Shown: positions 3,413 to 18,112 of the stretch, in pieces
Layout of the letters: the number at the start of each line of letters is the position of its first letter
Position numbering within the stretch: the first letter of the stretch is position 1
UHGV virus genome: UHGV-0188933
Direction: 5' to 3' (one strand)
From: a virus
DNA: 18,246 bases
The notes under the pieces: model-generated
Told to the model about the DNA's origin: nothing
The model's input: the letters and a program-made list of their open reading frames with translations, nothing else
The model's database searches: none
Program-made: the position numbers and the translations under genes

Positions 3413-3603
3413 ACGCCACAATTCAAACGATACCAGAGCTTCTTATCCAGACACGAGGCAATCAGACCGAAGTGGCAAGGATGCTTTCCTGCGCAAGAGG
3501 AACAGTGCTTAAGTACAACCGAGACAGCAAAGGCGAGCGTCACGTAATAGTTAACGGCGTCCTGATGGTCAAACAGGGCAAGAGGGGAAGACGATGGGCA
3601 TAA
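3409..3603 (+). CDS. ninH: NinH-like protein
   Basis: 64 aa; TIPELLIQTRGNQTEVARMLSCARGTVLKYNRDSKGERHVIVNGVLMV resembles lambda NinH (TIPDMLVEAYGNQTEVARRLKCSRGTVRKY). Position between rusA and Q is as in lambdoid nin regions. Confidence 0.75.
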   Translation: MNATIQTIPELLIQTRGNQTEVARMLSCARGTVLKYNRDSKGERHVIVNGVLMVKQGKRGRRWA

Positions 3604-4082
3604 GAGAACTAAACCTCACCAAAGAGCAGCACGAGTGGCTGAATGGCTGGCTTGAACTGTGGGGGGCATGGGTTTATTCAGGTCGTCTTGAAAAGCGCAT
3701 GAGCAGCGTAATAGCGAAGTTCATGGAGAGCGTAGAGCCGGGAAGAGTTATGACAAGGCCAATGTGCAATGATGATGATGGAATGTTGATTTCTCAGGTC
3801 GTCGATTCCGTCATGTACATTGACAAGAAAGCCTTTGGCATCCTCCTCAGCTACTACGCCCATGGATCTTCCAAGCACGCCATTGCATCTTACTATCATC
3901 GCGTCGCAAGACCTCGCAAGATGTTATGCCGGGGCGGAGGGCGCATTCAAAAACCATCGCTCGCAACCTGTCGTCGGGAAGTTGACGAAATCCTCAATGC
4001 CTCGTTGTTTATGATTTACCCGGTTCTGGATAGTGCGTTTAAAAACCGGAAACGTGTAGAGAAAATTAAACATGTAGCATAG
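3594..4082 (+). CDS. late-gene antiterminator, Q-like
   Basis: 162-aa Cys-containing protein in the Q position (after ninH, before the lysis cassette). Call rests on synteny and size more than on recognised motifs. Confidence 0.55.
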   Translation: MGIRELNLTKEQHEWLNGWLELWGAWVYSGRLEKRMSSVIAKFMESVEPGRVMTRPMCNDDDGMLISQVVDSVMYIDKKAFGILLSYYAHGSSKHAIASYYHRVARPRKMLCRGGGRIQKPSLATCRREVDEILNASLFMIYPVLDSAFKNRKRVEKIKHVA

Positions 4083-4172: not shown

Positions 4173-4247
4173 GGGTCAGTCGTATAAAGGTCATTACGGA
4201 AGGCTGTTAACCTTCTTATCGTGGTTCGAGTCCACGCTATCCCGCCA
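4173..4247 (+). tRNA. tRNA-Asn-like element (anticodon GUU), possibly degenerate
   Basis: Perfect T-arm cgtgg-TTCGAGT-ccacg, perfect anticodon arm gaagg-CTGTTAA-ccttc (U33, anticodon GTT, A37), U8, A14, GG in D-loop, 3' CCA at 4245-4247. Acceptor stem has two mismatches (gggtcag vs ctatccc) and D-stem one. Confidence 0.45.
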
Positions 4248-4709: not shown

Positions 4710-5126
4710 GCTGCGCGTCAGAGGTTCGATTCCTTTGCCCGCTCCAGTAAAAGCTTTCCAGTCTGCGATGATGGGTTCCCCGGAGTGACTGGAAAGCGAC
4801 CTGGTTTTGAATGGGCGCTGCTTTTTGCAAAATTGCTGTGTGAAAATACTGACCTTTGGGTTCAGCGCTCATCCAAAAGCATCACGTGAATTCACCAACG
4901 CTCATGTACTCTCCAGGAAACAATAAGTGATTCTGAAAAGTTCCGGTTAGATATTGCCCCGGTCACCGGATGATTTTATCTTTTGGTTCGTGGTGAATCC
5001 CCCTATGCGGCGGGGCGTCCAGTCAAACTTTTTTGTCCAGGTTTGTTTGCGCGGAACTAGTCGGCTGGGGCTGTTCCACCGGGAGGCACCCGGCGCCACC
5101 TCCTTGACGGTATTGTTATTTTTCAT

Positions 5127-5153
5127 GCCTGTTCGTCCGAGCAGGCTTTTTTT
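5127..5153 (+). terminator. intrinsic terminator about 410 bp upstream of holin (tR'-like)
   Basis: 8-bp stem (gcctgttc / gagcaggc with one G-U), 4-nt loop, then TTTTTTT. Confidence 0.6.
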
Positions 5154-5563
5154 GCCCGCATTATCTTCATTGAAAACTGGCAACTCAGAGAATCATCCAA
5201 ATTAAAAAAGCAGCAACGAGAGCGATTACTAATACATTCTTCGCTTTTTCTCTTCTGCTGGCCTTCACAAAAGGATTCACTATCCGGCAGTGGCTACACA
5301 CAAGTGATTCTGGGTTAATTAACTTTCCGCAGTAGGGGCAGGGCTTGATAATCATTGGTACTAATTAAGTTGTGAGAACGTAGTCTCATTTAACCACATT
5401 TATCGAGTTGTTTTACTAATGGTCTAGTTATTTCAGACATATTCATCAATTTCAGGCTCACGGGAATCATCCGCTACGTGCTTTGTTGATAAATCCAGCC
5501 CGTGAAGCCTGACCCTTTTCAAACACACACACAGCACCATCCGGAAAATCGGAGGTGAGGCCT

Positions 5564-6845: not shown

Positions 6846-6870
6846 ATGCGTACCGCAACGCATGTTTTTT
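6846..6870 (+). terminator. intrinsic terminator after lysis cassette (second of two)
   Basis: atgcgt-accgca-acgcat, perfect 6-bp stem, then g + TTTTTT. Confidence 0.65.
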
Positions 6871-6985: not shown

Positions 6986-7483
6986 ATGAAATCATTAACC
7001 CTCTTCAATCAACCAATTCGTATCGGTGAAGATGGCATGATCTGCCTCACTGATATGTGGAAAGCTAGTGGTAAAAGTGAATCTGAATCGCCTTACCACT
7101 ACCTGCGAAACAAGCAGACCAAAGAGTTCTTAGCCGAGCTGGAGAAAAACCACGAATCTGTGGTTTTTACTGAGCGCGGTGTACACGGTGGAACATATGG
7201 CGGGAAGTTTGTTGCTTACGATTATGCGGCTTGGTTAAACCCCGGGTTCAAGTACGCGGCCTATAAAGTCCTCGATGACTACTTCACCGGAGAACTTCAG
7301 CATCGCAACAGCTTAAGTGCGCAGCTCAACATGAAATGTCATGAGTTTGACCAGAAGAAAGACATGGCGAGCTTCTGCGGACAAGGGCTGGCAGCATGGC
7401 GCTATACGAAGCCAGTGTTGGTCGCTGAGATTAACTCCCTGGCTAACCAGCTGCAGATTACGATCCCCGGGCTTCCGGGATGA
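6986..7483 (+). CDS. KilA-N domain protein
   Basis: MICLTDMWKASGKSE...KEFLAELEKN...GVHGGTYGGKFVAYDYAAWLNPGFKYAAY matches the KilA-N pattern (TDxWKA, GGT, YAxWLxPxF). Confidence 0.7.
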   Translation: MKSLTLFNQPIRIGEDGMICLTDMWKASGKSESESPYHYLRNKQTKEFLAELEKNHESVVFTERGVHGGTYGGKFVAYDYAAWLNPGFKYAAYKVLDDYFTGELQHRNSLSAQLNMKCHEFDQKKDMASFCGQGLAAWRYTKPVLVAEINSLANQLQITIPGLPG

Positions 7484-7737: not shown

Positions 7738-8089
7738 CCATTACAAAGCCCATCTACGGGTGGGCTTGATAATGAAACCGTGATTTACATCCCCACAATC
7801 CGGGTATGTAAAAGATAGTTCAGGCGAGAACAGATTTAACTAAATCTGTGCACCACCAGTTACGGCAGTACCACGAAGCAACCCAAGCCAGTAAGTGGGG
7901 AAATAACACTGGCAGCCACTGAAAGATGAACCTCCAGCCTTATGGCAAAAAAGATTCTTTGTGGTGGCGGGCTGATGGAAAGACATCGGTTATTGCAGAG
8001 GCCATTCAATGAGTGGTCTCGACAATGGCTTATACCCTGCACGGGATAACTTAACTGATATCCCTTTTAACGGATAAACGGAGCCAACA

Positions 8090-8245
8090 ATGGCAAAGCT
8101 CACCGACAAACAAGAGCTGTTTGCCCGTGAGTACCTGAAAGATTTAAACGCCACACAGGCAGCTATCAGGGCGGGTTGGGCAAAAGCTCAACAACATGCC
8201 GTATTACCGCGCGAAACAATACGCGCAGATGCTTGGCATCGATGA
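8090..8245 (+). pseudogene. terminase small subunit, N-terminal stub (51 codons)
   Basis: MAKLTDKQELFAREYLKDLNATQAAIRAGW... is the conserved N-terminal helix-turn-helix of Terminase_2-type small subunits; frame ends at 8243-8245 after diverging. SD ggag 8 nt upstream. Confidence 0.7.
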
Positions 8246-11812: not shown

Positions 11813-12703
11813 GTGGGTACAAATAAGAACGGAATTCGATATAGCGCACTTTTTCTTTCCGGGTTGCTCTTATCCGGGGGCGCGAGTGCAGGCTTTAATT
11901 CCGCGCAGAACGCTGAGTACAAAAGACGTCCAGGATGGCAGCCGATAGTAATTTTATCGACAGATGATTGTCAGACATGGAAATCTAAAGGGAAGTCACT
12001 AATTGACTGGAGTGGCGAGATCTGTGGTCCTGACGGGTTGATTAAGGCAATCAATAAAAAGCCGGAGAATATACCAGCTTTTTATGCTGCATATCATGAG
12101 TACGGCACAGGTGGAGTTAGGGCTATCGATGTAAGAGATAATTCTCAGCTAAATTATCTCAATTTTGTAAATGATTTAGCTAAGAAACTTTCTTCTTCGG
12201 CTGTTGTATTAAAGATTTATGATGATTATATCATTGATAGAAAACCCATGGGGCTTGCAGAGGTTTCACGAGAAAATTTTGTAAAACAGCTAAATGAGTT
12301 ATCGCTGAAGCAACCTGCCATCTATCAAAAAATGAACGACGTAGCCAAGGCTGATTACGAGAAAAGTAGTAATGTTCACAGTAACGAAAAGCTTGGCGTG
12401 AATTACAAAACAGTCTGTGGTCCTTATACGATTGATCTGTCTTCTGCTGATGGTTGGGCCAGAATTAATGGCGCAAAACCAGAGACGCAAAAAATTAGCC
12501 CAATCGGCTCTGGTGGTAGCACCAAAGGGGAACCGGATAACATCAAGATGGAGTGGATGGCTGCCACTAATCAACCCGGCCGCTGGGTTGGGCTTGAGTA
12601 CATCAAGCGCAACGGAAAAGCTATTCTCAACGCACAGTGGTTGCAGGCCAGCATAGACGCGCCGCGCCAGTATGCAACATACGACTGCCGAAAAGTAAAA
12701 TAG
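11813..12703 (+). CDS. cargo (moron) protein, 296 aa: signal-peptide-like N-terminus and a TMP-like motif; function unknown
   Basis: GTG start 7 nt after GGAGG. N-terminus MGTNKNGIRYSALFLSGLLLSGGASAG looks like a signal peptide. Residues DDCQTWKSKGKSLIDWS parallel DDYQTWKEGGKSLIDWS in the TMP. Remainder is visibly AT-rich relative to flanking tail genes. Confidence 0.55.
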   Translation: MGTNKNGIRYSALFLSGLLLSGGASAGFNSAQNAEYKRRPGWQPIVILSTDDCQTWKSKGKSLIDWSGEICGPDGLIKAINKKPENIPAFYAAYHEYGTGGVRAIDVRDNSQLNYLNFVNDLAKKLSSSAVVLKIYDDYIIDRKPMGLAEVSRENFVKQLNELSLKQPAIYQKMNDVAKADYEKSSNVHSNEKLGVNYKTVCGPYTIDLSSADGWARINGAKPETQKISPIGSGGSTKGEPDNIKMEWMAATNQPGRWVGLEYIKRNGKAILNAQWLQASIDAPRQYATYDCRKVK

Positions 12704-12721
12704 CCCGCCAGATAGGCGGGC
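12703..12721 (-). terminator. GC-rich hairpin between the convergent cargo genes (terminator for the minus-strand gene)
   Basis: gcccgcc-agata-ggcgggc, 7-bp stem; on the minus strand it is followed by a T-rich tract (ctattttacttttc). Confidence 0.55.
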
Positions 12722-12726
12722 ATGCG

Positions 12727-13017
12727 TCAAAAATATTGAGCTTTAATTATAATAAACACAATAATTACGAACAGGATGTTTCTAATTATTTTTTGCTTAT
12801 GAGTAAGTTGTTTTTTTTCTGTCGATTTCCCGGGAGAGTAAAGGTTAGTGGTATGCGACAGCCCCGTGCCGGGAAGGCCATTTGTCATCTTTACGCCTTT
12901 TTTCCCGATGTTAATGGTGGAACCTTTACCACCAATTGAAGTGCTTACTCCGCTTTTACTAATGTTGATCGCGAGTCCGGGCGCAATCCGGATTCTTTTA
13001 CGAAATCTAAATCCCAT
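12727..13017 (-). CDS. DUF4236-like small protein with C-terminal transmembrane helix
   Basis: MGFRFRKRIRIAPGLAINISKSGVSTSIGGKGSTINIGKKG...PGTGLS resembles what I recall of the DUF4236 N-terminal signature; C-terminus IIRNILFVIIVFIIIKAQYF is hydrophobic. AT-rich, convergent with the cargo gene. Confidence 0.55.
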   Translation of the reverse strand: MGFRFRKRIRIAPGLAINISKSGVSTSIGGKGSTINIGKKGVKMTNGLPGTGLSHTTNLYSPGKSTEKKQLTHKQKIIRNILFVIIVFIIIKAQYF

Positions 13018-13204
13018 TTGTTACTCCTGTAGTCAATAATGCGATGGTGCAGGTCCACTCTATGGCGGCTTCATGGCTGAAATTGATTTTCAATGCTTAC
13101 TTGTTGCAAACATATCCTAATACACATTGTGAATGTGTGCCATTGCAGCGGAAAAGCCTTACTTCACACTGATGTAGCTTAGTTACTAAGAGATAATTGA
13201 TACC

Positions 13205-13228
13205 AAACCAGCTTCGGCTGGTTTTTTT
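13205..13228 (+). terminator. strong intrinsic terminator 12 bp upstream of the spike gene start
   Basis: aaaccagc-ttcg-gctggttt, perfect 8-bp stem with tetraloop, then TTTT (7 T in a row counting the stem end). Confidence 0.7.
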
Positions 13229-13239
13229 ATGGGGGTTTT

Positions 13240-13980
13240 ATGCCAATTCCAACTCAATCACAGATCGGCGGTGAGCAGCAGACCGCGCAGGCCATTGCCG
13301 ATTCGGTGTCTACCCAGATGCGCGTAGCGATGCCCGGCATCATTCAGTCGTTCGATCCTGACACTGTTACCTGCACGGTAGAGGTAGCGCTTCGCGGTAT
13401 CGTTGGCGATGGCTCCACCGAATTAAAACCGCTGGTGGATGTGCCGGTTATCTTCCCGCGTGGCGGCGGTTGTACGCTGACTTTTCCGGTTAAAGAAGGC
13501 GACGAGTGCCTGCTGCTCTTTGCCGACCGTTGCATCGATTTCTGGTGGCAGAGCGGCGGCGTGCAGGAGACCGTCGACCCGCGCCAGCATGACTTATCTG
13601 ATGCGTTCGCCATCGTTGGCCCACAGTCGCAAGCACGGAAAATCAGCGGTATCAGTACCAGCGCCGCGCAGCTGCGAACCGATGATGGTGCGGCGTTTGT
13701 AGAAGTCGCCGCAGGACATAACATCACCATTAAAACACCGGGCCAGCTTACAGCTACGGCTGAAGGTGGAACGACAATCACATCCCCGACTATCACGCTG
13801 AACGGCAACGTAACGATTAATGGCAACTTGTCTCAGGGAATGGGCGAAAGCGGCGGTACTGCGACGATGCTTGGGCCGGTGACGGTAACGAATGACGTAA
13901 CAGCTTCTGGTATCAGTGTCGCCACGCATAAACATGGCGGAGTACAGACTGGCGGGGGAACTACCGGAGGGCCGCAATAA
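13240..13980 (+). CDS. baseplate spike / assembly protein V (Mu gp45, P2 gpV-like)
   Basis: N-terminal OB-fold-like region (GIIQSFDPDTVTCTVEV...PLVDVPVIFPRGGG...GDECLLLFADR) and Gly/Thr-rich beta-helical C-terminus (TITSPTITLNGNVTINGNL...). Confidence 0.8.
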   Translation: MPIPTQSQIGGEQQTAQAIADSVSTQMRVAMPGIIQSFDPDTVTCTVEVALRGIVGDGSTELKPLVDVPVIFPRGGGCTLTFPVKEGDECLLLFADRCIDFWWQSGGVQETVDPRQHDLSDAFAIVGPQSQARKISGISTSAAQLRTDDGAAFVEVAAGHNITIKTPGQLTATAEGGTTITSPTITLNGNVTINGNLSQGMGESGGTATMLGPVTVTNDVTASGISVATHKHGGVQTGGGTTGGPQ

Positions 13981-17739: not shown

Positions 17740-18112
17740 ACATCCTCCACGCCCTGAAGGACGGGGTTTTACGGCGCACCGGATAAATCCAAATGGAGTT
17801 TCGGGAGATAAATGAAACCGTAGCACGTCGTATGCAAGAACGTGCCACGGCTGGCTGGCGAACTTTCGATAGTGCGAGTATTGAATGATTTCCAGCCGTT
17901 ACCGATTTTACTATGTTTTCAGTAGAACGCTTAGACAAAACTTAGGCGCACAAAGCTTTGCACTGGATTGCAAGACTTTGTTCTATTCGATATGGGTTAA
18001 GGTGGATCACTCCACCTTTTCATCAAGCCAGTCCGCCCACCATTGCATCATTTCTCTGCGCTTATCGAGATACTGAGCATGGTTGTAAATTCAGCAAACG
18101 ACGTAATGTGTT

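Follow-up and report, generated by a model that had tools for sequence, protein, structure and literature searches.

Sequence comparison identifies the hairpin and T-run at 13205-13228 of the window, the whole 18,246-nt stretch of viral DNA (UHGV-0188933) that was analysed, as a genuine, canonical intrinsic terminator on the late-gene strand that is under selection, and as the fixed right edge of a hypervariable cargo (moron) slot, which has the baseplate-hub module on one side and the gene for the central spike on the other. The slot is assigned to a large family of lambdoid Enterobacterales prophages with contractile-type tail genes and a Q antiterminator. At this edge the terminator probably blocks stray transcription in the lysogen and is read through by Q-modified polymerase. 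From left to right, the locus comprises:

3594-4082, plus strand: Q-like late antiterminator gene (phrog_943 'anti-termination protein Q-like', E=4.9e-90)
11813-12703, plus strand: last backbone gene before the slot, phrog_3443 family, 296 aa, N-terminally extended (PHROG match over residues 198-296)
12703-12721, minus strand: predicted terminator of the cassette, GCCCGCC-TATCT-GGCGGGC then TATTTTACTT, top-ranked in terminator scans
12727-13017, minus strand: DUF4236 cargo gene, 96 aa (Pfam PF14020, E=1.8e-20)
13169-13204, plus strand: relic of the 3' end of an ant gene, with its last codons ...D-V-A-stop (GATGTAGCTTAG at 13171-13182) and 3' UTR
13205-13228, plus strand: predicted intrinsic (Rho-independent) terminator with 8-bp stem, C(UUCG)G tetraloop and 7-T run (sequence and terminator scan)
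13229-13239, plus strand: ribosome-binding region of the spike gene, with the Shine-Dalgarno (SD) sequence GGGGG at 13231-13235
13240-13980, plus strand: gene for the central baseplate spike, 246 aa, with Pfam matches to a Gp138-type N domain (E=1.7e-41) and to the GpV Apex motif (E=3.5e-08); relatives appear in RefSeq under the names 'phage baseplate assembly protein V' and 'membrane-puncturing spike protein'

The hairpin proper (13205-13224) is composed of the stem AAACCAGC, the loop TTCG and the stem GCTGGTTT, with a CCAGC/GCTGG core and four G:C pairs among its eight base pairs. The T-run consists of seven consecutive T residues (13222-13228), the first three of which pair with an upstream AAA. 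The hairpin has a ΔG of -10.7 kcal/mol and is present in the MFE fold as well as in the centroid fold, and a consensus scan ranks 13205-13228 as one of the two best plus-strand terminators in the 18 kb. The GC-rich stem with its short loop, the uninterrupted U-tract and the selection on pairing are those of an intrinsic terminator, and the 8-bp-stem terminator that the original prediction had placed here is thus borne out by scan, folding energy, fold and conservation. The distance to the spike start codon had been put at 12 bp; it is 11 nt (13229-13239) between the T-run and the ATG at 13240. The spacer between the DUF4236 and spike genes, which had been described as AT-rich, spans 222 nt (13018-13239) and indeed has a GC content of about 0.40-0.45, compared with 0.52-0.62 in the flanking tail genes.

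Of 163 sequences drawn from about 20 enterobacterial genera, 128 have an equivalent hairpin and T-run ahead of the spike ATG, and in these 128 loci the end of the T-run lies 5-23 nt (median 18) from the ATG. Among junctions with 100 nt or more of cargo, 110/113 have the element, and it is missing from all 30 junctions in which the hub and spike genes abut or overlap; overall, 124 of the 128 non-abutting junctions carry it, against a background of 27/6354 random 70-nt windows (0.4%). It is not mere cargo baggage, since it also occupies 14 of the 15 empty junctions, which have a gap of 30-99 nt (e.g. Salmonella L018), and in L018, L020, L030 and L151 these follow the layout of hub stop codon, 40-60 nt, hairpin and SD. 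Among the relatives' hairpins there are 72 distinct stem/loop combinations, with compensatory variants of the stem (CCAGC/GCTGG, CCCGC/GCGGG, CCTGC/GCAGG and GCCGC/GCGGC). In the covariation analysis 98.2% of cells are paired, a value that is partly so by construction because the loci were preselected for having the hairpin, and four of seven pairs show double-sided changes; the observed covariation score was reached by 0/500 shuffles, and slid controls were 34-55% paired. The CCAGC/GCTGG variant is strictly linked to the DUF4236 cassette and invariant there, with 0/24 variable columns over the hairpin in an alignment of 20 cassette variants, whereas the distal spacer has 21% and the coding sequence 12% variable columns. 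A full terminator is not obligatory, since the L207 type and Klebsiella phage GZ7 have DUF4236 in the equivalent slot next to a hairpin without a U-run.

The hairpin also marks the point at which the loci diverge. Megablast homology with relatives bearing other cargo starts at 13205, 13207, 13215 or 13222, the conserved backbone begins at 13229-13239 or inside the T-run, and the string TTTTTTTATGGRGTTTTTATG is kept downstream of unrelated upstream sequences. The DNA upstream of the hairpin is unrelated from locus to locus, the slot content being swapped among relatives. On the other side, tblastn mapping in relatives places the left edge of the slot at the stop codon of the phrog_3443 gene (11813-12703), the N-terminal part of which is low in GC. 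The cargo comprises 167 ORFs in 56 clusters, including Phd/Doc, Arc and BRO/P22_AR_C antirepressor (ant) genes, and is likewise low in GC (0.40-0.46 over 12700-13200, compared with 0.52-0.62 in the hub and spike genes). In 78 of the 99 unique cargo slots with ORFs, the ORF adjacent to the hairpin lies on the plus strand, so that the hairpin would serve as its 3' terminator. Of the 42 E. coli genomes with this spike gene, 19 have the DUF4236 cassette in the slot and the rest carry other cargo; in other relatives the slot is empty or absent.

The divergent minus-strand gene noted beside the spacer exists, and is the DUF4236 gene. It was found in this slot in 19/5426 complete E. coli genomes, always inverted relative to the late genes, an orientation that recalls lambda bor. 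One carrier, with the prophage intact, is E. coli O18ac:H14 873.10 (NZ_CP061754.1). The DUF4236 product, taken to be a membrane protein, has a hydrophobic C-terminal segment (NILFVIIVFIII); PADLOC returned no defence-system match for DUF4236 or for seven other cargo proteins, and a single incidental mention of DUF4236 was found in the literature. The terminator at 12703-12721 has seven G:C pairs and a T-rich tail and touches the stop codon of the upstream plus-strand gene, and among cassette variants only 1/37 columns is variable over 12690-12726. The unit thus shows both the own terminator and the deviant GC content of a moron. At the other end of the cassette, the 36 nt at 13169-13204 are 92% identical to L090 and 86% identical to L129, in each of which a BRO-N/P22_AR_C antirepressor ORF adjoins the hairpin and finishes with the matching sequence. 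Since this ant relic precedes the hairpin, the terminator once ended that ant gene, the remainder of which has given way to the inverted DUF4236 cassette and the minus-strand terminator that this cassette carries. The spacer has no separate copies as an independent mobile sequence and was found, in a distant-mode search, only with the DUF4236 cassette (19/5426 E. coli genomes); in L188 and L189 other sequence has taken the place of its proximal 83 nt.

In lambdoid late operons, tR' of lambda and downstream terminators are read through by Q-modified RNA polymerase, which is expected to ignore intrinsic terminators. In the window, the gene order is that of a Q operon, with holin, endolysin, Rz and then tail genes downstream of Q on the plus strand; a complete relative (L001+L227) has the order int-N-cI-Q-lysis-terL-sheath-TMP-hub-spike with all late genes on one strand, and in L227 a TTGACT-17-TAAATT site follows Q. 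With its Q antiterminator and its late genes in a one-strand operon, the prophage would still be able to express the spike beyond the terminator. As in lambda, an intrinsic terminator thus lies on the late strand downstream of the Q gene with essential late genes beyond it. By contrast, tR' is next to the late promoter, whereas the present element and the Q gene upstream of it are about 9 kb apart, a distance that exceeds 20 kb in the intact relative. No other strong late-strand terminator was found in the structural region.

In a lysogen without Q, the terminator would halt plus-strand transcription before the spike, baseplate and tail-fibre genes. Such stray transcription could originate from cargo promoters, from divergent firing of the DUF4236 promoter, or from spurious promoters in the AT-rich cargo. 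Once the prophage is induced, RNA polymerase modified by Q and arriving from the late promoter would pass the terminator, perhaps with some attenuation, and ribosomes would then translate the spike using the SD 6 nt 3' of the U-tract. Insulation of the baseplate genes from cargo transcription, one of the two roles suggested originally, is supported by the comparative evidence, namely by the constancy of the slot edge and the absence of the hairpin at abutting genes. The present-day benefit in this particular genome is uncertain, since no plus-strand gene lies upstream of the terminator in the slot of this window. Furthermore, the prophage of the window is defective, with terS fused to the middle of the tape-measure gene, so that the element may no longer be important here, and the terminator in this window may be a retained relic.

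A less probable explanation, which is compatible with insulation and not exclusive of it, is that the hairpin is a cargo-independent backbone element, acting either as an attenuator that keeps spike, baseplate and fibre transcripts below those of the upstream tail genes or as a structure for stabilisation or processing of the mRNA on either side; cargo would then merely collect beside it. The presence of the hairpin at all but one of the 15 junctions without cargo is consistent with this, as are its tight distance to the start codon (5-23 nt) and its retention in the GZ7/L207 lineage even without the U-run. However, the 30 relatives with overlapping hub and spike genes have no hairpin, which is therefore dispensable for tail assembly, and attenuation would be limited if, as expected, Q-modified polymerase passes intrinsic terminators. 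In P22, the ant moron has been reported to modulate late-promoter tailspike expression, the ant region affecting how often transcription from the late promoter reaches the tailspike gene (PMC2629481), which would fit an attenuating role.

The remaining explanations concern the spacer and the hairpin as a DNA site, and involve four further features:

13041-13066, minus strand: conserved candidate leader/promoter motif of 26 nt, GCCAYAGAGYGGNNCNGCNNCATCGC, 23 nt upstream of the DUF4236 ATG
13114-13143, minus strand: weak candidate sigma-70 promoter for DUF4236 (relaxed consensus scan, 7.5/12)
13122-13138, no strand: 7-bp inverted repeat with 3-bp centre, acacatt-gtg-aatgtgt, judged a chance, SNP-created dyad
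13184-13194, plus strand: 11-nt segment deleted in several otherwise near-identical cassettes (20-variant alignment)

The other role suggested originally was a separately transcribed short RNA, that is, a plus-strand sRNA (e.g. Hfq-binding) encoded by the spacer, divergent from the DUF4236 promoter region and ending at 13228. Small RNAs within phage structural operons that end in intrinsic terminators are known, e.g. PasB (bioRxiv 10.64898/2026.05.13.724894), and like IsrK (RF01394) and PasB the spacer is intergenic in the structural region of a lambdoid prophage and ends in a 3' stem-loop followed by poly-U. An sRNA would also agree with the linkage of an invariant CCAGC/GCTGG terminator to the cassette, and with a distant DUF4236 cassette in the tail operon of a lambda-like siphovirus, which likewise has a long spacer ending in plus-strand terminator hairpins just before the next late gene. 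The match to isrK at 13145-13227 (E=0.002-0.007) reaches only 23.4 bits, compared with a gathering threshold of 50, and the alignment is driven by the terminator and contains several non-canonical pairs; at gathering thresholds no Rfam family matched the spacer. Moreover, no plus-strand promoter scoring at least 9/12 was found in the spacer, and the sole relaxed match would start the RNA at the hairpin and is destroyed by the common 11-nt deletion. The fold z-scores are -0.64 for the plus and -0.25 for the minus strand, which gives no structural signal. Conservation upstream of the terminator is poor: 21% of the distal columns vary and an 11-nt indel is tolerated there, the distal part being partly an ant relic, and the proximal 83 nt are exchanged wholesale in L188 and L189. 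The occurrence of the 11-nt deletion in near-identical cassettes disfavours a tightly constrained RNA ending at the terminator. E2348/69, the source of PasA-D, is not among the 19 matching E. coli genomes, and may not be in the collection of 5426. An sRNA in the spacer is accordingly considered unlikely.

Other readings of the spacer gave no better candidate. The Rfam matches obtained with E-value thresholds (isrK, Trp leader, rsmX and STnc130) were all below the gathering thresholds and terminator-driven. A 36-codon plus-strand ORF at 13063-13173 has no SD, and its frame does not survive the exchange of the proximal spacer in L188 and L189; no conserved small ORF was found in the spacer.

It is quite unlikely that the hairpin region is mainly a recombination anchor for cassette swapping, by homologous or site-specific exchange, whose terminator form is incidental. 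The homology breakpoints within the hairpin and T-run (13205, 13207, 13215 and 13222) would be accounted for in this way, as would the consensus AACCCGC...GCGGGTTTTTTT, which adjoins many unrelated cargos. However, the stem sequences vary with pairing kept and the loop lengths vary, which fits selection for an RNA structure better than for a DNA site. In addition, no recombinase was found to be associated with the slot, and the T-run and ribosome-binding site alone could act as a homology arm.

The 26-nt motif upstream of DUF4236 has one exact match in the window, compared with 0 expected, and is followed by a -10-like CATTAT at 13041-13036. It was found in 44 IMG/VR stretches, restricted to two cassette groups. 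Three unrelated genes for small membrane or secreted proteins have it ahead of their ATG, at a distance of 23 nt (once 30 nt); it is also present in the H-M slot of a lambda-like siphovirus. RNAalifold of the DUF4236 leader from two cassette groups gave just two helices, of 4 bp and 3 bp, neither of them with a double-sided change. These observations can be tentatively joined with those on the hairpin in a speculative reading, in which the terminator would be both a backbone checkpoint and a cargo-exchange anchor, and the 26-nt motif a portable promoter/leader module. If the checkpoint is real, expression of spike, baseplate and fibres would be limited to Q-modified polymerase. The anchor, if true, would be the fixed right-hand point of an exchange hotspot across about 20 enterobacterial genera, and would explain the persistence of the element in empty junctions. 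The 26-nt module, if true, would make small membrane-protein cargo expressible wherever it is inserted.

The inverted repeat acacatt-gtg-aatgtgt is present at 13122-13138 as originally described, and had been taken for a plausible operator of the divergent minus-strand gene. The dyad is a perfect 7+3+7 repeat in the window, it falls inside the spacer of the sole sigma-70-like promoter candidate on the minus strand (13143-13114; -35 ATGGCA at 13143-13138, 18-nt spacer, -10 TAGGAT at 13119-13114), and it survives where the proximal part of the spacer is replaced. Its place inside the candidate promoter would suit an operator but is no proof of one. However, the dyad symmetry expected of an operator is not conserved in the homologous regions: only 2/38 loci, the window and L001, have a perfect dyad, and in the other 36 (27 with ACACCTT..., seven with ACACCTTGTGAATATGT and two with a GTA centre) the arms match at 5/7 or 6/7 positions or the centre is altered. 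The majority form (ACACCTT) is thus mismatched, and the variants of the right arm and centre are uncompensated, the substitutions breaking the symmetry. When arms of 7 bp or more and loops of up to 6 are counted, the window has 13 perfect repeats (about nine of them distinct), compared with 8.2 +/- 2.9 in Markov replicas, a count that is not above random, and 9.7% of replicas of the 222-nt spacer hold at least one. The cassette contains no regulator gene, and the overlapping candidate promoter is itself weak (7.5/12); no site of at least 9/12 was found for a DUF4236 promoter, the weak candidates being 13143-13114, with a predicted transcription start near 13107, and CATTAT at 13041-13036, with one near 13029. 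An operator at this position is thus highly improbable, and the comparison identifies the palindrome as the chance product of a single C-to-A change (position 13126), without demonstrable role. Readings of the palindrome or of the 26-nt motif as CRP, sigma-54, sigma-32 or sigma-E sites were rejected on inspection by eye, for misfits of spacing or consensus.

By analogy, the arrangement of slot and terminator is of a known kind; the nearest known case is the 'ant moron' of P22, situated 5' of the tailspike gene. In both cases a Q-dependent late operon has variable cargo, sometimes absent, immediately 5' of the gene for a host-contacting tail protein. The content differs among syntenic relatives, with ten types in sixteen genomes for P22-like phages (PMC2629481) and at least 56 ORF clusters here. 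Some relatives of the present prophage even hold Arc and BRO/P22_AR_C genes, and the window keeps an ant 3' stub. By contrast, the neighbouring genes in P22 are gene 16 and the tailspike gene 9, whereas here they are the hub and a Gp138/gpV-type spike among contractile-type tail genes, and the 'empty' form with the terminator only is common here (14 loci). Homology between the two slots is not claimed. A moron has been defined as a unit with a promoter and a terminator of its own (PMC3594210). Like the morons of lambda, HK97 and HK022 (Cumby et al. 2012, PMC3594210), the DUF4236 unit is inserted in a tail operon, is missing from close relatives, has a lower GC content than its surroundings, and has its own factor-independent terminator, which would be 12703-12721 for DUF4236 and the plus-strand hairpin for plus-strand cargos. 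Unlike them, it has weak candidate promoters only and is inverted relative to the late operon.

The analysis locates a well-defined cargo hotspot, with the order hub, (phrog_3443 gene), cargo, terminator and spike, in a common and little-studied family of lambdoid enterobacterial prophages with contractile (sheath, tube and baseplate) tail genes. For annotation, this means that an orphan terminator before an essential late gene is to be expected in Q-controlled phages, and is not to be read as an operon boundary or an sRNA gene. The hotspot can be found mechanically, by a hairpin and T-run within 25 nt of the spike ATG, and can be mined for accessory genes; its contents already include toxin-antitoxin pairs, immI-like Arc/Ant modules and many small uncharacterised membrane proteins. 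It provides a second example, in another virion type, of the 'moron in front of the tailspike' arrangement of P22.

The 222-nt spacer upstream of the spike gene has a GC content of approximately 0.40-0.45, versus 0.52-0.62 for the adjacent tail genes, and both the palindrome and the terminator of the original prediction are located there at the positions proposed:

12721-12703, minus strand: strong terminator of the DUF4236 gene, abutting the stop codon of the plus-strand gene upstream
12727-13017, minus strand, divergent: DUF4236 gene, 96 aa, hydrophobic C-terminus
13122-13138: inverted repeat acacatt-gtg-aatgtgt, seen in the sequence
13205-13224, plus strand: terminator hairpin, stem AAACCAGC, loop TTCG, stem GCTGGTTT
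13240-13980: central baseplate spike gene, Gp138-type N domain and GpV apex motif

The hairpin is canonical in form, with a C(UUCG)G tetraloop, a ΔG of -10.7 kcal/mol and a 7-U tract (seven consecutive T, 13222-13228), and is followed after 11 nt, including the SD GGGGG, by the spike ATG (13240). Conservation was assessed in a census of spike relatives covering 163 sequences (the window together with loci drawn from GTDB genomes, from IMG/VR and from three E. coli genomes). In each of these the hub, phrog_3443 and spike genes were mapped, and the hairpin detector demanded at least three G:C pairs, ΔG ≤ -7 and a T-run. A hairpin was detected in 128 of the 163 spike loci, its end lying 5-23 nt upstream of the ATG at a median distance of 18 nt, with a background of 27 in 6354 random 70-nt windows of the same loci. 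It is present at 110 of 113 junctions with at least 100 nt of cargo and at 14 of 15 junctions that are “empty” (30-99 nt) [e.g. Salmonella locus L018: hub stop, AACCTGC-CATCGA-GCAGGTT-TTTTATT, SD, ATG], and at none of the 30 junctions with overlapping or abutting genes. Stem and loop occur in 72 distinct combinations, and when 88 distinct sequences are aligned with MAFFT, 98.2% of cells are paired, a value that is partly by construction, since the sequences were selected for possessing the hairpin. This does not apply to the two-sided changes seen at four of the seven stem pairs (C:G to A:U, U:A or G:C); the observed covariation was reached by none of 500 shuffles, and partner-slid controls pair at 34-55%. 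Within the DUF4236 cassette family none of the 24 columns of the hairpin and T-run is variable. By comparison, 12% of columns vary in the coding sequence, 64% in the proximal spacer and 21% in the distal spacer, the last figure including an 11-nt indel (13184-13194). The terminator is thus a genuine, strongly conserved and selected element.

The hairpin bounds a slot for cargo (morons) between the hub-side genes and the spike gene. The whole DUF4236 cassette occurs 19 times in 5426 complete E. coli genomes; another 23 E. coli genomes match the query only from 13205, 13207, 13215 or 13222 onward and differ upstream, so that homology starts at or inside the hairpin. In the relatives, 350-2800 nt of unrelated DNA separate the last backbone gene from the hairpin, and 99 unique slots hold 167 ORFs in 56 clusters. 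Among the cargo that could be identified are a Phd antitoxin and a Doc/Fic toxin, as well as an Arc-like repressor and BRO-N/P22_AR_C antirepressors; the remainder consists mostly of small membrane proteins, lipoprotein-like proteins and unknown proteins. PADLOC models matched neither DUF4236 nor any of seven other cargo proteins. The ORF nearest the hairpin lies on the plus strand in 78 of the 99 slots, indicating that the hairpin is the terminator of that gene, and is inverted in the other 21, the window type among them. The 36 nt preceding the hairpin (13169-13204) are 92% identical to locus L090 (3930-3965) and 86% to L129 (3924-3959), where they form the terminal codons (...D/N-V-A-stop) together with the 3′ UTR of a plus-strand BRO-N/P22_AR_C antirepressor gene. 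The “orphan” plus-strand terminator is therefore the remaining end of an ant-type unit; in the window, the inverted DUF4236 cassette has taken the place of the body of that unit. Arc-like genes stand beside the antirepressor gene in both L090 and L129, and thus the slot sometimes holds a P22 immI-like module.

DUF4236 is found in the same slot and orientation in Klebsiella phage GZ7 (L228, 3262-3700) and approximately 15 IMG/VR contigs (L207-L221). Here the spacer is just 87 nt, the hairpin (CCCATCAC-TAA-GTGAGGG) lacks a T-run, and a bidirectional-looking hairpin is located at the opposite end of the DUF4236 gene. Eleven loci (L017, L019, L048, L076, L085, L095, L106, L115, L120, L154 and L190) carry the motif CCTGACATTTGATCAGTAACCC approximately 10-25 nt 5′ of the hairpin; in most of them the cargo, from several unrelated families, runs opposite to the late genes, and the motif could represent either a leftward promoter common to these loci or a scar of recombination. 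Another motif, GCCAYAGAGYGGNNCNGCNNCATCGC, is 26 nt long and is located 23 nt ahead of the DUF4236 start codon (13066-13041, minus strand). In a cargo island of a lambda-like siphovirus, situated between its tape-measure and gpM-like genes, it precedes two other unrelated small genes, again by 23 nt (once 30 nt), which encode 46-aa (MNRVWLIVLIV...) and 43-aa (MKKVxALLLVA...CPKGTHPHG) proteins with hydrophobic N-termini. It was found in 44 IMG/VR stretches and in two different phage tail operons; besides the window site, its positions include L195 2947-2995, 3290-3340 and 3522-3558. The genes behind it encode small membrane or secreted proteins of three unrelated kinds, and GCCAYAGAGYGGNNCNGCNNCATCGC is probably a promoter/leader module that is portable and shared among small cargo genes, to which no sigma factor or structure could be assigned.

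The window is a lambdoid prophage with the following gene order:

Early part: O-like and DnaB-like replication genes, antirepressor, RusA, Q-like antiterminator (3594-4082)
Middle, after Q: tRNA-Asn, STnc100, holin, endolysin, Rz, Rha/KilA-like gene
Tail part up to the slot: tape-measure gene (3′ two-thirds), Dit-like baseplate protein, hub, phrog_3443-type gene
Slot and beyond: DUF4236 cassette, spike, baseplate wedge subunit, baseplate J, DUF2612, tail fibre, fibre assembly protein

Its complete relative in E. coli 873.10 (L001, L227) is integrated between torS and torT. Relative to the latter, the window prophage carries a deletion running from the terS 5′ end to mid-tape-measure: homology ends at 7774 and restarts at 8175 within the tape-measure gene, with the 5′ end of a terS-like ORF (MAKLTDKQELFAREYL...; region 7775-8196) in between. 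No head, sheath or tube gene is left, and the prophage is defective. In the intact phage every late gene downstream of Q is on one strand, so that the hairpin is an internal terminator of a Q-dependent late operon.

In lambdoid phages the interval between Q and holin genes is where the late promoter and its leader lie. In the window this interval contains tRNA-Asn(GTT) (4173-4247) and the STnc100 sRNA (4965-5157; full-length match, 71.7 bits), which ends in a strong terminator (5127-5153); L227, with a different Q gene, has neither. A second, moderate plus-strand terminator-like site (6846-6869; ATGCGTACCGCAACGCAT then GTTTTTT) between the Rz and Rha/KilA-like genes is conserved in L227. The phrog_3443-type gene (11813-12703) encodes 296 aa, versus 116 aa in L001; its additional N-terminal part is of low GC (0.35-0.46) and finds no match at the nucleotide level in L001, and the long form, also present in L045, L097, L101, L106 and L109, may reflect a second cargo insertion fused in frame.

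Given a conserved terminator at the slot boundary and a Q-dependent late operon, insulation of the baseplate genes from cargo transcription is the best-supported of the functions originally proposed. Q antitermination turns on lambdoid late operons. By analogy with lambdoid biology and P22, in a lysogen lacking Q plus-strand transcription arising within the cargo would be halted by the terminator before it reaches the genes for spike, baseplate and fibre, while after induction Q-modified polymerase would pass through it. This reading is complicated by the GZ7/L207 type, with DUF4236 in the same slot and a hairpin without U-run, and by the defectiveness of the window prophage. A further complication is that the hairpin persists at empty junctions, so that it may have a backbone role, e.g., in attenuation or mRNA stability. 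A purely recombinational role is disfavoured, because pairing rather than sequence is the conserved property.

A short, separately transcribed RNA ending at 13228, for which PasB, inside a phage structural operon, would be a precedent, was not borne out: no suitable promoter for a plus-strand transcript and no structural signal were found in the spacer, the DNA upstream of the hairpin is poorly conserved and tolerates an indel, and an isrK match is sub-threshold and terminator-driven. The proposal that the palindrome acts as an operator likewise found no support, its sole favourable point being a position inside the 18-nt spacer of a weak candidate DUF4236 promoter (-35 ATGGCA, 13143-13138; -10 TAGGAT, 13119-13114). 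Among related cassettes the dyad is perfect only in the window and L001, and the variants (ACACCTTGTGAATGTGT in 27 loci, ACACCTTGTGAATATGT in seven, a GTA centre in two) show no compensating change on the opposite arm. The window is not enriched in perfect repeats of this class (arms ≥ 7 bp, loops ≤ 6; 13 hits, versus 8.2 ± 2.9 in Markov replicas), and 9.7% of random spacer versions contain at least one, so that the palindrome is a chance dyad, completed by a single C-to-A change. Longer perfect inverted repeats exist at 7830-7849, 459-482, 7145-7168 and 17999-18018: one with 9-bp arms (ACAGATTTAACTAAATCTGT) lies within the deletion-junction stretch lacking homology to the intact relative, one with 10-bp arms lies within the O-like replication gene and could be linked to an origin, and the remaining two have arms of 8-9 bp.

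The closest known system is the P22 ant moron, which is reported to influence how frequently late-promoter polymerases reach the tailspike gene (PMC2629481). By definition, a moron carries a promoter and a terminator of its own, so that it can be expressed from a repressed prophage (PMC3594210). The arrangement described here is a fresh example of an already known type, a terminator-bounded moron slot in a Q-dependent late operon.
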